A stretch of 18,952 bases of DNA from a virus (lineage: Duplodnaviria; Heunggongvirae; Uroviricota; Caudoviricetes), in the IMG/VR virus record IMGVR_UViG_2563366990_000003, positions 1-18,952 of that record, one strand, 5' to 3'. Positions 14,669 through 18,952 of this stretch are shown here, piece by piece (within the stretch, counting starts at the first letter, position 1; every line of letters starts with the position of its first letter). The notes below the pieces were generated by a model. That model did not search any database. It saw only the letters and a list, made by a program, of their open reading frames with translations, and was not told the origin of the DNA. Both the position numbers and the translations under genes were made by a program.

Positions 14669-14702
14669 AAAACCCCGCTTGCTACCAACAAACGGGGTTT
14701 TT
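14669..14702. terminator. Bidirectional intrinsic-terminator-like hairpin between the endolysin and the small ORF/Rz
   Basis: Read directly: 9-bp stem AAAACCCCG/CGGGGTTTT with a 15-nt loop, flanked by T-rich tracts on both strands. Confidence 0.4.
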
Positions 14703-14791
14703 ACTTTTATTCACTTAGGTTTTGCCAGTTCGCAGGATTTCGTGTTATCCGTCCGCGTTGGCCAACGTCATTTTTCAGCAAAATATTCTGC

Positions 14792-15325
14792 TTATCTGTC
14801 GATTCCCCAGCACGCCAGCGCGCTCTCCTGGTCACGACGGGATATCTGGCCGTAACAGTTGTTTGAGCGGATACGGCAGTCTCTGCCACCGTCCTTAATC
14901 CACCAGCGAATCGCTTCACACGCTCCCCTGCGATCGCCTGCATTAATTCGTTTATAAAACGTCGACGGGAAACACTTACCGGGGCCAATGTTATACGGGC
15001 AGAATGACGCAATACCCGCTTTCTGGGGTTCGGTCAGTGGCACTCTGATGTTTTTCTCCACCCATGCCAGCGCCTTATCCCGTTCGATAGCGTTAACCCG
15101 GTCGCATTTTTCCTTCGACAGCTTCATGCCAGGAATCACAGGCTTACCATCCACCATGATGGCACCCCGGCAGATGGTCCAGATACCCGCACCATCACGG
15201 TATGCCGTGGTGTGGTTGCCTTCCTTTTCATCCAGAAACTGGTCGAGGATTTCAGGCGCAGAAGCCCCTGCGGCAATCAGCGCCAGAACGGCAGCTGACA
15301 GGCCGTATTTGATTTTTGCGTTCAT
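14792..15325 (-). CDS. R: SAR endolysin (phage lysozyme, GH24 / T4-lysozyme fold)
   Basis: 177-aa ORF. The N-terminus has a weakly hydrophobic Gly/Ala-rich SAR-like segment (YGLSAAVLALIAAGASAPE). The catalytic E-x8-D-x5-T triad is present (EGNHTTAYRDGAGIWT). It matches my recollection of the R lysozyme of Shiga-toxin-type lambdoid phages. ATG at 15325. Confidence 0.9.
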   Translation of the reverse strand: MNAKIKYGLSAAVLALIAAGASAPEILDQFLDEKEGNHTTAYRDGAGIWTICRGAIMVDGKPVIPGMKLSKEKCDRVNAIERDKALAWVEKNIRVPLTEPQKAGIASFCPYNIGPGKCFPSTFYKRINAGDRRGACEAIRWWIKDGGRDCRIRSNNCYGQISRRDQESALACWGIDR

Positions 15326-15352
15326 GGATATTTATCAGGATTTATAGCTCTC

Positions 15353-15403
15353 TTATTCCTGGATATGTCAGATATATAATCCGGTACTCACGATGAATAT
15401 AAT
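15353..15403 (+). promoter_or_regulatory. Candidate sigma70 promoter(s) for the plus-strand 106-aa ORF
   Basis: Read directly: TATAAT hexamers at 15375-15380 and 15398-15403 in a very AT-rich intergenic region 50-75 bp upstream of the ATG at 15451. The -35 elements are poor (TTATTC). Confidence 0.3.
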
Positions 15404-15450
15404 CAACAGGCACCAGGACACACCCGGTAACAACAAATGAGATTTTATAA

Positions 15451-15771
15451 ATGAATAATAATGACAACAATTTACGCAAAGAGTTTTTGCAGATAATGAA
15501 CGAAAATGTTAAATCAGAATTAAAAGCGCTTATCCCGGATAATAGCGAAACCACTCAGGCCATTCTCTCAGAGCCTTACGGCATGCTTTCAACAGAAACA
15601 CTGGATATCATTATCACCACATTAACACCATTGATGCTTCAGCATCTGAAGCACAACATTAACAAATGGTTTAATGACGAACTCAGTCACCCGGGTTGTT
15701 CATGGGATAAAAACTTTGCCTGTCTGCAAAAAAAACGGCTCTTCAATAAACTATCGCTTAAGTTCAGATAA
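15451..15771 (+). CDS. Hypothetical 106-aa protein, plus strand, convergent with and overlapping the 3' end of the 385-aa gene
   Basis: It is the only plausible plus-strand gene in the window. It is AT-rich, Asn/Lys/Leu-rich and predicted helical. ATG at 15451, weak RBS. No family recognised. Confidence 0.5.
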   Translation: MNNNDNNLRKEFLQIMNENVKSELKALIPDNSETTQAILSEPYGMLSTETLDIIITTLTPLMLQHLKHNINKWFNDELSHPGCSWDKNFACLQKKRLFNKLSLKFR

Positions 15772-16921
15772 CCGCCCCAAACCGCCCTTTCAGATAAGTC
15801 AGCCCCGGCTGGATCCAATCATCTGGCTCAGTCTTAAAGGGTGGAGTATTGAAATCACGAAGAACGGTCTCCCGCACAACTGCATCCTTATCAGCACCAC
15901 TGACCAGCGCTTCAATCTCAGCGGCTACCTGCAGATACCCCATGCAACGACCAATGCGCTTCATTAGTCCCTGCTTTTTATTGTTCTTCAGGTAATCAAT
16001 GGCAAATTCAATGAGCGTCTCACAGTGCTGGTGCGATGGCGGTGTTACTTTTCCATTTTCTGAGATAGTTATTTTCCCGTCATCACCGGATACAACAAAG
16101 GATGGCCGGTTACACTCCCATTCCTGGTCACTGAAATCTACCTTCAGAAAGAACGGCCCGATTTTTGTAAAGGAACCTTTGGCATCGTTCCCCTCATGAC
16201 GGAATACACCGACTCCGGCGGTAACGAGTTCACCGGTTATCGTATTTGTGTCTATTTCGATGCTTACGGGAATGGAACAGAGGATACCTGGACTTCTCTC
16301 AACATCATGTTTGATGGCCTCATGAAAGCCACCAAAAGAATGAGCAATGAAACAATCACTGGCGAGATGCGTCCCCTTTAAAAAATTATCCAGAATCTCA
16401 CTATTTGCAGAGCGCTCTCTGTTTTTTTGAATACGGAAACACTCTGCGAGATTTCTGCTCATCACTTTCCGGCAATAATCGTAAAACGCCGCGAACTGCT
16501 CATCACGGCGTTTTTTTTCACCTTCGGAAGGGATCTGCACCGACAGTTTTTTATTCAGTTCAACGACGCTGTTCTCCAGTTTTTCAATGCGTGATTCGAT
16601 ATCATCTTTTTCTGACTGTATCGTGTTATATGCATTGTTAATTTGTATGGTATACCGCTCTTCTGAACAGAGGCGCTTTTCCCGTGACTGTTCATCCCCT
16701 TCACATAAAGCGGCAGCAATATCCATGAAAAACTGCTTCGCCTTCTTTTTCGCCTCAGCTTCGTAAAATTCCAGCGTGGCACCTTCAGTACGGTCAAGAC
16801 TAATCGCCACATATGGCGACAACAACGACGGCTGCCCGGCAATTTCCAGTGCCACAGTAACAGTAATCTTATCCGGGTAATTATTTATCCCTTTAACAAC
16901 CAGTTCGTATTGTTTATTCAT
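15764..16921 (-). CDS. Hypothetical 385-aa protein inserted between holin and endolysin; function unknown
   Basis: ATG at 16921 lies 3 nt after the holin stop, with GGGGAGAG as RBS. The ORF is long and uninterrupted in AT-rich DNA. Architecture by eye: N-terminal domain, a central charged heptad-like segment (about aa 85-170) and a C-terminal Cys/His-containing domain. No signal peptide or TM segment. No family recognised. Confidence 0.8.
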   Translation of the reverse strand: MNKQYELVVKGINNYPDKITVTVALEIAGQPSLLSPYVAISLDRTEGATLEFYEAEAKKKAKQFFMDIAAALCEGDEQSREKRLCSEERYTIQINNAYNTIQSEKDDIESRIEKLENSVVELNKKLSVQIPSEGEKKRRDEQFAAFYDYCRKVMSRNLAECFRIQKNRERSANSEILDNFLKGTHLASDCFIAHSFGGFHEAIKHDVERSPGILCSIPVSIEIDTNTITGELVTAGVGVFRHEGNDAKGSFTKIGPFFLKVDFSDQEWECNRPSFVVSGDDGKITISENGKVTPPSHQHCETLIEFAIDYLKNNKKQGLMKRIGRCMGYLQVAAEIEALVSGADKDAVVRETVLRDFNTPPFKTEPDDWIQPGLTYLKGRFGAVI

Positions 16922-16924
16922 CGT

Positions 16925-17140
16925 CTACTCTCCCCGTGCCGCCTTGCGCCGGTCCTCTTTAATTTTGAAATACAGGTTTGTCAGGTACGTCAGCAACCCA
17001 AACAGCAGACTCCCCAGCACACCTATTGCCGCCCACTGAGACGGGGAAACCCTGTCCAGCAACTGCAGGAACCAGTAGCCCGTTCCCACCGCTGACGTGG
17101 TGTATGACACACCTGTTGTGATTTTTTCCATCTGGTACAT
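16925..17140 (-). CDS. S: Class II holin of the phage 21 S21 pinholin family, with dual-start motif
   Basis: 71-aa product [71 protein letters not shown], near-colinear with S21 as I recall it. It has two TM segments and Met1/Met4 starts (antiholin/holin). GGAG RBS. The ORF-track start at 17194 is a GTG further upstream. Confidence 0.9.
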
Positions 17141-17216
17141 ACCCCGTCTCCCGCAATCCGGAAGCTCACAACAATATAAAGACCACCGGCACACACCGAT
17201 GGTCCCTTGCGCATGC

Positions 17217-17462
17217 TTACATCATCATGTCGCTGTCAGGTGTGGGTTCACCGCCATCTGAAGCACTCCCGTCACCCGCAATGCCTTCCGGCTCCGGAAC
17301 TGCCGGTGCGCCCAGCAGTTCATCCAGAATGGCATCCACTTCTGCATCAAGACGCGACTCAAGGTTCTGGCGGAGTTTCTGTTTCAGTGCGCTCAGGACT
17401 TCTTCAGAGCGCAGGACTTCCTTCACTGCTTCAGCAGTGACCAGGGATGTGATTTCTGACAT
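17217..17462 (-). CDS. Hypothetical acidic 81-aa protein upstream of the holin
   Basis: ATG at 17462, following the 60-aa ORF stop by 26 nt. Product [51 protein letters not shown]... is helical and acidic with non-random composition. The RBS is weak. Confidence 0.5.
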
Positions 17463-17487
17463 GGGATTTTCTCGCTGAAAGGGGTTG

Positions 17488-17670
17488 TTAAGGAGTAACG
17501 GGCTCTTCGGGTTTGCTTCCGGCTGACTGACTGGCGCTGATTTTCTCAGCGGCCCTTTTATCAATCTGCCTGCGCCAGAAATCGCGCACGGCCCTGTACC
17601 CACCCGAAAGAAGATACAGCACACAGACCGCCGTACAGAAGTACAGCATCACCTGATGAATAAATGTCAT
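17488..17670 (-). CDS. Hypothetical 60-aa small membrane protein
   Basis: ATG at 17670. One predicted TM segment (VMLYFCTAVCVLYLLSGGY) followed by a basic/polar tail. Same strand and operon context as the lysis genes. Confidence 0.45.
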   Translation of the reverse strand: MTFIHQVMLYFCTAVCVLYLLSGGYRAVRDFWRRQIDKRAAEKISASQSAGSKPEEPVTP

Positions 17671-17770
17671 AATTTCTTACCGTTATGGTTGACTAAGTAA
17701 ACAGTTTTCATTTAAAAATGCCGATGACGAAAGTGGTAGTATCTTTCCTTGATTCTCCATGAATCTCACA

Positions 17771-17806
17771 CCGCCAGAGGTCTCAGGCAACTGGCGGCTT
17801 TTTTTA
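17771..17806 (+). terminator. Plus-strand intrinsic-terminator-like hairpin, abutting the stop of the large minus-strand ORF
   Basis: Read directly: 7-bp GC-rich stem CCGCCAG/CTGGCGG with a 13-nt loop, followed by C plus T7 on the plus strand only. The minus strand has no U-tract after the stem. Confidence 0.4.
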
Positions 17807-18952
17807 TCATGCCGCGGCATCCGCGTTGTTCACTTCCACCTTCACACTGTCAATCAGCAGCGTATATGTCGCCGCCTTTGATATGCCTGTCAGTTGCAGT
17901 TTGTCCGCCGCCCCTGATGCCGGAGATTTCACCAGTGTGAACGGTGTACCCCGTTTCTCATCCAGTACCGGCGTCACCTGAATGCTGTTGTTTCCGGCAA
18001 ACTCAAAAGCCAGTGTGTGCCATCCGTTATCAAAGACCCCGAACGTATCCAGCTTCGCATTCTGCTTCTTGTGGTACATCGCGTTCAGGTTCGTCGCATC
18101 CGTCTGCAGGAAGAAGGACATCAGCATGTCGTTGCCTTCCTCTGACAGCGTCACTCCCTCCGGCAGGGACGACAACTGCCAGTAAATACCCAGGGCAAAC
18201 TGATTCGGCACCAGTGCGCCCGGCACCTTAAACCGCACGCTCACACGTCCGCCTTTCTTCAGCAACTCTGCCCCCTGCCCGGCGGCATCATGCTCCAGAA
18301 ACCAGATGTGGCTTTCCGGTTTGTTCAGTTGCAGGGCCTTACCACCGGTGGCACCCTCATCACTGACCACGGCCTCAGCGATGTTTTTATCAACACTGTC
18401 TCCGCTCGCCGGTTTGTGATAATAGCGCCAGCCCTGTGATGCCAGGTCTTCACCGGACGCCAGCAGACTCATCAGGGTTCGGTTACTGACCGGGGCTTCC
18501 GGCTCTCTCTCCGGGCCTTCACCGGAAGGTCCGGTGGGCTTCACCGTATCAGGCTGTTTTCCGGTAATGAATTCAGCGGTTCTCCCGGCATGCACCAGAA
18601 TCGCCGTTGCCAGACGGTCGGAAATAATCCCACGGCGAGCCCATGAACTGAAATGGCTGGCCCTGTCCACAGATGTCCAGGTCTTCTGGTCATTACGCCA
18701 CTTTGAACCGTAATAACCGACGGCTTCCAGGTCCGGGTCTTCTGCCGGGTCATTGGTCTGCACATTCGCACCATTCTCATCCGTCATTAACGGTACAAAG
18801 AAAATGTTCTGCGACTCCTTACCCTTATACCCTCCGTATACTGATGCATACCCTTCCGCATGACGCTGCTTCCAGAAATACGTTGTGTCCCCGCAAACCC
18901 ACGGTACCGCTGATGCGCTGCCTCCTGTGCTCTGTGATGCCTGACCGGCAAG
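17807..18952 (-). CDS. C-terminal 381 codons of a larger late-operon protein truncated at the window edge; possibly NanS-p-like
   Basis: The frame is open from 18952 down to TGA at 17807-17809; the ORF track shows only the part from the first in-frame ATG at 18787. Large ORFs in this position upstream of the holin in Shiga-toxin-type prophages are NanS-p-like sialate O-acetylesterases as I recall. I cannot confirm this by sequence recognition. Confidence 0.6.
   Translation of the reverse strand, partial: LAGQASQSTGGSASAVPWVCGDTTYFWKQRHAEGYASVYGGYKGKESQNIFFVPLMTDENGANVQTNDPAEDPDLEAVGYYGSKWRNDQKTWTSVDRASHFSSWARRGIISDRLATAILVHAGRTAEFITGKQPDTVKPTGPSGEGPEREPEAPVSNRTLMSLLASGEDLASQGWRYYHKPASGDSVDKNIAEAVVSDEGATGGKALQLNKPESHIWFLEHDAAGQGAELLKKGGRVSVRFKVPGALVPNQFALGIYWQLSSLPEGVTLSEEGNDMLMSFFLQTDATNLNAMYHKKQNAKLDTFGVFDNGWHTLAFEFAGNNSIQVTPVLDEKRGTPFTLVKSPASGAADKLQLTGISKAATYTLLIDSVKVEVNNADAAA

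Follow-up and report, generated by a model that had tools for sequence, protein, structure and literature searches.

A rare recombinant allele at the holin-lysozyme junction of a Stx-phage-like Escherichia coli prophage

Genes at the holin-lysozyme junction

The window analysed here is the complete stretch of 18,952 nucleotides (nt) of the IMG/VR virus record IMGVR_UViG_2563366990_000003 and corresponds to the late region of a lambdoid prophage of Escherichia coli, similar to the Shiga toxin (Stx) phages, with its late genes on the minus strand. We have focused on the segment 15326-16924, which lies between the genes of a phage-21-type holin (S21) and its lysozyme (R21). In the direction of late transcription, three genes (DUF6645, DUF1378 and DUF826) are followed by the holin, the cargo segment 15326-16924, the lysozyme, Rz/Rz1, the DUF1441 small terminase, the large terminase, the portal and the remainder of the late genes. 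A previous sequence-only reading of this DNA had located between a pinholin and a signal-anchor-release (SAR) endolysin one open reading frame (ORF) of 385 amino acids (aa) on the late strand and a convergent one of 106 aa, and both sets of coordinates were confirmed. The junction and its two flanking genes are organized as follows.

15764-16921, minus strand: 385-aa ORF, chimeric, YdfR family, modules A+B+C+D (ORF list, Pfam, BLAST module map)
15451-15771, plus strand: 106-aa ORF, orphan gene, predicted soluble five-helix bundle (phrog_1853 at 1e-43, homologues, substitution rates, structural model)
15326-15450, no strand: intergenic spacer between the lysozyme start and the start of the 106-aa gene, guanine plus cytosine (GC) content 0.36
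16925-17140, minus strand: phage-21-type class II holin (pinholin), 71 aa, with the MYQM dual-start motif (Pfam PF04971, Phage_holin_2_1, P21 S, 1.5e-32; 71-aa gene call in identical loci); alternative 5' extent 16925-17140/17194
14792-15325, minus strand: SAR-type, R21-like lysozyme with a SAR-like N-terminus (Pfam PF00959, Phage_lysozyme, 2.2e-23)

The two cargo ORFs are convergent and their 3' ends share 8 nt. The ATG of the 385-aa ORF is found 3 nt beyond the holin stop codon, and the 3' end of the holin gene contains an embedded Shine-Dalgarno-like run, GGGGAGAG, that serves whatever gene comes next. The spacer on the lysozyme side has two parts, one (15326-15368) common to most occupied alleles and forming a new lysozyme leader with no nearby Shine-Dalgarno sequence, and another (15369-15450) particular to the allele carrying the 106-aa gene. 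Rfam and tRNA scans of the window gave no matches.

Insertion at a hypervariable site

The segment represents a rare recombinant version of a hypervariable site where Escherichia lambdoid and Stx-type prophages carry accessory genes (morons). We compared 80 IMG/VR loci with a holin 97-100% identical to that of the window; both the holin and the lysozyme gene could be located in 70. In 12 of these 70 the junction is empty, with the lysozyme ATG only 1-4 nt past the holin stop (...GGGGAGAGTAAGCTGATGAGC...), as in phage 21, the sequence state of the empty junction being ...GAGAGTAAGCTGATGAGC... The presence of these empty sites identifies 15326-16924 as an insertion, since the flanking genes are adjacent in close relatives, and bears out the proposal of the sequence-only reading that the holin-endolysin pair had been split. 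The other 58 junctions are occupied, with spacers that range from 358 to 1316 nt and fall into more than 20 length classes or cargo layouts. The 1.6-kb state of the window was absent from all the sampled IMG/VR loci. Furthermore, among 5426 complete E. coli genomes, 1379 match parts of the segment and none reaches 80% coverage of it, while the exact 385-aa protein is on record on only three other contigs, always accompanied by the 106-aa gene.

The base composition is equally distinctive. The segment has a GC content of 0.434 (43.4%), compared to 0.556 and 0.544 in the left and right flanks, and the 1599-nt window of lowest GC in the whole 18.9 kb begins at 15321 (z = -5.5 against non-overlapping windows). 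GC at third codon positions is 0.43-0.49 in the cargo genes versus 0.60-0.69 in the holin, lysozyme and Rz genes, and the 106-aa gene has an overall GC of 0.374. Thus the AT-richness that had been noticed by eye holds both in overall GC, against about 0.55 around it, and at third codon positions, and the composition differs from that of the surrounding genome as in a moron.

In every occupied locus the first cargo gene begins 3-5 nt past the holin stop, so that it inherits the GGGGAGAG run. The lysozyme of occupied alleles starts with M(N/S)(A/T)KI(K/R)YG behind an AT-rich leader and that of empty alleles with MSRKLRYG, and therefore the cargo junction falls within the first codons of the lysozyme. 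At occupied junctions such as that of the window the lysozyme start is MNAKIKYG instead of MSRKLRYG and the cargo gene takes over GGGGAGAG, which could alter the holin to endolysin ratio.

Besides the 106-aa family, at least four further types of reverse-strand ORF with unrelated N-terminal sequences were found at the same junction. Among the loci L028-L107 some of these ORFs start with MDNNTISLQELL (90-94 aa, 10 loci), others with MNEENTALFDRI or MSEENSKENTAL (87-91 aa) and another with MADNLNKENLME (105 aa). A 95-aa reverse-strand ORF of locus L019 gave a weak partial match to the PADLOC model PDC-S51 (E = 2.5e-5). Long YdfR-family genes appear broken into two ORFs in L033, L085 and L036 (162+134, 140+110 and 68+62 aa), which points to frequent frameshift decay at the junction. 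The RefSeq annotation of the junction is patchy: YdfR genes are flagged as pseudogenes by the NCBI annotation pipeline (PGAP) and a 209-aa reverse-strand gene described below is mostly unannotated.

Variation is also found on the other side of the holin. The E. coli prophages L023-L027, in which a 120-aa small-gene homologue is alone at the junction, have two extra genes about 290-1650 nt upstream of the holin, one coding for a 263-aa Enterotoxin_a/Scabin-like ADP-ribosyltransferase and the other for a 110-aa protein, at the position taken by stx in Stx phages. In L005 (1-3705), a contig carrying the same 385-aa allele, there are two tandem copies of the DUF6645-DUF1378-DUF826 block upstream of the holin; DUF6645 is part of a complete SASA-esterase (NanS-p-like) protein in the first copy and stands alone, as a short gene, in the second. 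This arrangement matches the right end of the window (17217-18952).

Modules of the large open reading frame

The sequence-only reading had recognized neither of the two proteins. Actually, the large ORF belongs to the YdfR/DUF1327 family (Pfam, 1.6e-34), the usual occupant of this junction, as in the essQ-ydfR-rrrQ arrangement of E. coli K-12. A BLAST comparison against 95 homologues divided the ORF into four modules, one of which (C) overlaps elements of the opposite strand.

16622-16921, minus strand: module A (aa 1-100), DUF1327/YdfR N-terminal domain (Pfam PF07041)
16421-16621, minus strand: module B (aa 101-167), coiled-coil segment (sequence-profile matches in the PDB, long helices in the structural model)
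16139-16420, minus strand: module C (aa 168-261), antisense read-through of a truncated reverse-strand gene and its terminator (opposite-frame homology, breakpoints)
15764-16138, minus strand: module D (aa 262-385), conserved C-terminal domain (conservation among long YdfR and B+D proteins)
16139-16381, plus strand: 5'-truncated remnant, the last 80 codons and stop, of a moron gene of about 209 codons (100% identity to residues 131-209 of homologue P0107)
16407-16430, plus strand: intrinsic-terminator-like hairpin followed by a run of seven T (terminator scan), beginning 26 nt past the stop of the remnant

Module A matches PF07041 over residues 1-83 (118.5 bits against a cut-off of 25, E = 1.6e-34) and is 38% identical to YdfR of K-12 (BLASTP E = 8e-20). 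It is predicted to fold as strand-strand-strand-helix, and in the AlphaFold2 model the per-residue confidence (pLDDT) is 73-90 for aa 1-70. Module B matched in the PDB only GCN4-like coiled coils, at approximately profile positions 113-157, and is also found in stand-alone B+D proteins of 194-213 aa. Module D is 80-92% identical in proteins of 287, 296 and 213 aa and 41-64% in more diverged ones. Among 185,579 species representatives it was found only in Escherichia/Shigella; it had no Pfam or PDB sequence match, and NCBIfam, PHROGs and PADLOC gave no function for it either. Profile searches, as had been proposed, placed the N-terminus of the large ORF in a family; neither D nor the 106-aa protein was assigned a function by these or by the structure searches. 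The ratio of nonsynonymous to synonymous polymorphism (pN/pS) across alleles was 0.28 for D, the lowest of the six frames, and 0.57 for A, and by these sequence comparisons both modules are genuine coding sequence under purifying selection.

The modules occur in different combinations: A+B+D (287 and 296 aa), A+B+C (263 and 305 aa), B+D (194-213 aa) and A alone (86-116 aa). One arrangement has a 213-aa B+D gene and, after it, DUF1327 as a gene of its own (75 aa), so that A and B+D exist both fused and split. No other allele class has the combination A+B+C+D of the window.

Truncated moron within the large open reading frame

Module C is not a protein domain, and the 385-aa ORF is an A+B+D gene with 94 codons of antisense read-through in the middle. 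Aligned to the window, the A+B+D alleles match as far as 16137 and resume at 16425, having only 5 nt of their own between the two blocks, from which it follows that the window carries an insert of 287 nt (16138-16424), for a net gain of 282 nt, in frame. The A+B+C alleles share 16137-17185 with the window and then run into an intact moron. Microhomology at the insert junctions is 1 nt at most and all copies of C are just two single-nucleotide polymorphisms (SNPs) apart. The AlphaFold2 model has a pLDDT of about 30 across this module.

A long ORF crosses C on the opposite strand in the A+B+C loci. Pfam, PHROGs and tblastn against phages returned nothing for this ORF, and NCBIfam and PADLOC gave no function for the 209-aa moron protein. 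In a large protein database it corresponds to a 209-aa protein of E. coli (294 member sequences) with homologues in Salmonella enterica (65% identity) and Yersinia enterocolitica (52%), and the alignment of the family (P0107 from E. coli, P0108-P0110 from Salmonella and P0112 from Yersinia) contains many invariant residues over the full length. These homologues lie opposite to late genes, in Salmonella in the interval between the Q region and the holin and in Yersinia between the tail genes I and J; the variety of prophage positions, always on the reverse strand, identifies the gene as a mobile reverse-strand moron. It is present intact in L002, L010, L015, L056 and L085. In the window only the last third is left, identical at 100% to the C-terminal 79 residues of P0107 and at 59% (E = 5e-33) to the Yersinia homologue P0112, and both start codon and promoter are gone. 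The hairpin at 16407-16430 is the terminator of the moron cassette itself and is now the first terminator-like site on the plus strand downstream of the 106-aa gene.

Two other interpretations of this region were discarded along the way. A MAFFT alignment had hinted that C might be a real domain akin to the short linker of the 213-aa proteins, which was ruled out when a conserved gene was recognized in the opposite frame; and the 233-aa antisense ORF, taken as spurious after the null Pfam and PHROG searches, was reinstated by the Salmonella and Yersinia homologues. Regarding annotation, in L002 (2526-3240) and in 133 complete E. coli genomes the intact moron of about 209 aa is mostly unannotated in RefSeq and the adjacent YdfR gene is flagged as a pseudogene.

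Hence the cargo is not made of two genes, as had been read from the ORFs, and consists of three units of separate origin, one of them a dead fragment read antisense by the large ORF. We hold this anatomy and history (insertion at a hotspot, a chimeric ORF and three unrelated units) with high confidence. It also carries a caution, as a long and clean ORF of phage cargo can be chimeric, here with a middle part that is the reverse complement of the remnant of another gene, and protein searches or structure predictions made with the whole ORF of such a chimera would mislead.

A chimera of this kind might be simply a decaying product of recombination (moron insertion and later deletion) with no function, open by chance, in a segment that is mostly neutral passenger DNA. 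The antisense junk in C, the rare and clonal allele (identical on three contigs and absent from the 5426 complete genomes), the neighbouring alleles that are often frameshifted, split or flagged as pseudogenes, and the empty junctions that reveal the cargo as dispensable all agree with it. The antisense frame has the codon boundaries of the moron and presumably needs only the lack of TTA, CTA and TCA codons to remain open. On the other hand, purifying selection acts across alleles on A and above all on D, D can still be translated because the insert keeps the frame, and the start context is intact. We regard decay as rather unlikely, although it is the alternative to be taken most seriously.

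The 106-aa reverse-strand gene

The 106-aa ORF is by sequence criteria a real gene under purifying selection, belonging to a narrow orphan family. Homologues with 45-98% identity are found in E. coli prophages, including orf6 of Stx2 phage 86, and the protein matches phrog_1853 (1e-43), a PHROG that gave no clue to its function. The ratio of nonsynonymous to synonymous substitution rates (dN/dS) is 0.21-0.35, with synonymous sites saturated, and the annotated frame has the lowest pN/pS of the six. The AlphaFold2 model is a five-helix bundle (pLDDT 80.8, predicted template-modelling score 0.71). No Pfam, NCBIfam, PDB-sequence, PADLOC or fold match and no transmembrane segment was obtained for it. 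An exhaustive profile search over 1.84 billion representatives recovered only 19 small or fragmentary clusters, and the allele is present in 27 of the 5426 complete E. coli genomes.

The earlier description gave this gene promoter-like elements of its own and the capacity for independent expression. If it has a promoter, this must fall in 15369-15450, where two TATAAT hexamers are indeed found upstream of the ORF (15375-80 and 15398-403). A sigma-70 scan of 14700-17400 returned no sites, and neither these hexamers nor any other upstream -10/-35 are conserved in the diverged homologous loci; this part of the description was not confirmed. Of the signals typical of morons, the truncated 209-aa cassette has a terminator hairpin, no sigma-70 consensus was found in the region scanned, and the YdfR-family gene is devoid of signals of its own. 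The moron layout that had been proposed survives in that one gene rides the late operon, a real gene lies on the opposite strand and the composition is foreign; what was not recovered is the independent promoter. In the same spacer, between the start of the 106-aa gene and the lysozyme, there is a terminator-like hairpin on the late strand (15411-15429, minus) that, if active, would be a terminator inside the late operon immediately before the endolysin gene.

Morons on the reverse strand of lambdoid phages, such as bor, are expressed in lysogens. By analogy, the 106-aa gene alone could be a gene of lysogenic conversion with bor-like expression from the prophage, acting in superinfection exclusion or in anti-phage defence, the rest of the segment being irrelevant. 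Such a role fits a real gene under purifying selection, always opposed to late transcription, able to hold the junction alone, of low GC (0.374) and sharing its site with several unrelated families of small reverse-strand ORFs. It fits less well with the lack of a promoter consensus or conserved upstream -10/-35, of any match to a defence model or fold, and of a signal peptide or membrane segment, in which the protein differs from most exclusion proteins; the family is also tiny (the 19 clusters mentioned). We consider this explanation unlikely.

Relationship between the two genes

If the two ORFs were one unit, in toxin/immunity, defence or exclusion, the late protein would be the effector and the reverse protein a constitutive antidote or partner. 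A D-containing gene followed by a small reverse gene does recur, in diverged form, in Stx2 phage 86 (orf5/orf6), Stx2_12E129 and L001, and wherever a D-containing gene neighbours the small gene in the loci examined, D is the adjacent module. Nevertheless, the distribution of the genes already largely refutes this possibility. D is very commonly found without the small gene: a 296-aa A+B+D protein whose gene abuts the lysozyme, with no reverse gene, is represented by 147 blocks in the assembly index, and the junction classes of 596-603 nt and 931 nt are also devoid of it. Reciprocally, a 120-aa homologue of the 106-aa protein (58% identity) is the sole occupant of a junction with no YdfR gene. 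The toxin/immunity and two-component readings would require that the two genes always occur together, whereas each is found at the junction without the other. Besides, the genes are convergent and not co-transcribed, and the large ORF is here interrupted by a foreign insert. A narrower version, in which D and the small gene would be a co-evolving pair, was likewise rejected by genomic-context look-ups in which each occurs alone.

Nor did defence models support phage defence, one of the roles suggested for the segment beforehand, for either protein. Against PADLOC-DB 2.0 the best E values of the 385-aa protein were 0.011 and 0.049 and the 106-aa protein had no match; among homologues, only P0027 scored at all (E = 0.018), and P0104, P0107, P0112 and P0054 were without hits. 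Neither gene was matched as part of such a system by PADLOC, Pfam or NCBIfam. A joint system of the two genes thus appears very improbable. The explanation that we favour as a whole, with three unrelated units at a moron site and two genes that do not form a system, is in our judgement probable, with appreciable room for doubt.

Comparison with known systems

By sequence and position the segment belongs to the YdfR/DUF1327 family. YdfR of the K-12 Qin prophage (PF07041) has the same N-terminal domain as the 385-aa ORF, at 38% identity, and the same position and strand, between a class II holin (essQ) and a lysozyme (rrrQ), with the same tight spacing after the holin. The location on the late strand of a class II holin-lysozyme interval is common to the window, K-12 Qin and the 58 occupied IMG/VR loci. 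The differences are in length, as the 103 aa of K-12 YdfR comprise the domain and one helix, whereas the 385-aa ORF adds the coiled coil, the 94-residue antisense insert and the 124 residues of D. The long YdfR alleles of Stx and other lambdoid prophages (287/296, 263/305 and 213 aa, and orf5 of Stx2 phage 86) are closer, with 50-100% identity per module at the same junction, and the window allele equals an A+B+D allele with 287 nt from the moron cassette inserted between its B and D modules.

As a whole, the segment was compared with the morons in the sense of Hendrix and colleagues, such as bor and lom of lambda. Like them, it places additional DNA between genes that are neighbours in related phages, with deviant composition, genes on the reverse strand and one cassette with a terminator of its own. 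It differs in that the late-strand YdfR gene lacks signals of its own and relies on the late promoter, and in that no promoter was found for the reverse gene. The segment falls outside the toxin-antitoxin pairs, the catalogued defence systems and the membrane-bound lysis accessories. It is a rare new allele at a known kind of site and not a new kind of system, and nothing here indicates a new class.

Possible roles and significance

The position of the late-strand gene favours efficient translation together with the lysis genes; the gene is dispensable, modular and often decayed, and both proteins are cytoplasmic. By hydropathy, no membrane segment, signal peptide or lipobox was detected in either: the maximum 19-residue Kyte-Doolittle values are 1.05 and 1.23 and the grand averages of hydropathy -0.43 and -0.53, and their N-termini are polar.

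These properties bear on the idea that the cargo acts on lysis, either by a YdfR-family protein that modulates the timing of pinholin and SAR endolysin or by an insertion that shifts the S:R expression ratio. The location within the lysis cassette is suggestive, and so are the cargo taking the holin-embedded GGGGAGAG and the lysozyme left with altered first codons and an AT-rich leader without a nearby Shine-Dalgarno sequence. Known holin regulators and spanins are membrane proteins and both proteins here are soluble, lacking transmembrane or signal sequences; moreover, core lysis functions do not show such extreme turnover of modules or such frequent decay. In favour would be the link between ydfR and envelope integrity that came from a genetic screen cited in PMC13232886. 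On balance an effect on lysis seems improbable.

In the explanation that we favour, with three unrelated units, the YdfR-family gene takes over the holin-embedded run, with its start 3 nt past the holin stop, and is therefore expected to be expressed from the late transcript together with the lysis proteins. It would code for a soluble cytoplasmic protein, formed by the DUF1327 domain, the coiled coil and domain D, which might act as a dispensable late accessory factor that binds host RNase E (its catalytic half) and/or RNA through DUF1327, oligomerises by its coiled coil and owes its target or effect to the swappable C-terminal part. The 106-aa gene would be a separate moron expressed in the lysogen, transcribed on its own against late transcription.

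Docking on RNase E or RNA is a tentative lead, drawn from the K-12 homologue, and we would not bet on it. The literature on YdfR function yielded one relevant paper only, in which residues 1-72 of K-12 YdfR gave a bacterial two-hybrid signal with RNase E 1-597 and co-purified with Rne 1-598, together with nucleic acid resistant to DNase (PMC13232886). Several points weigh against the favoured explanation as a whole, among them the promoter results given above for the small gene. Few transcripts responded to overproduction of YdfR, and according to the authors the RNA signal might have come from a contaminant (PMC13232886). The RNase E binding was reported only for K-12 YdfR, a homologue with 38% identity (PMC13232886). 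The insert of 94 non-native residues may inactivate the protein or uncouple D from A+B, and the frequency of frameshifted, split or pseudogene-flagged long YdfR genes (L033, L085) suggests weak selection. Finally, no structural or family match hints at an activity for D or for the 106-aa protein.

Several phages have dispensable factors that bind or modify host RNase E, namely Srd of T4, gp0.7 of T7 and Dip of phiKZ. Their resemblance to the activity suggested for DUF1327 is a functional analogy only, with no relationship in sequence or structure, and they are early or middle proteins of virulent phages, whereas the YdfR-family gene belongs to a temperate phage and has the timing of the lysis genes.

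A more ambitious possibility, which we consider decidedly speculative and doubtful, is that the S21-R21 junction is a dedicated exchange site for modules of interaction with the host. A DUF1327 adaptor on RNase E or RNA would present interchangeable C-terminal effectors during late lytic growth, and the several unrelated small genes of the reverse strand, the 106-aa orphan among them, would be undescribed defence or exclusion genes expressed in the lysogen, in a hotspot like those of P2 and P4 but located inside the lysis cassette.

Whatever the role of its cargo, the S21-R21 junction is much used by accessory genes in the phage-21-type lysis cassettes of Stx and other E. coli prophages: among the sampled junctions there are more than 20 layouts, decay is frequent, and at least five types of reverse-strand ORF appear unrelated by their N-terminal sequences. 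Temperate phages would have in these late genes a means of adjusting the decay of host RNA as infection ends, provided that the RNase E lead applies to the whole family.

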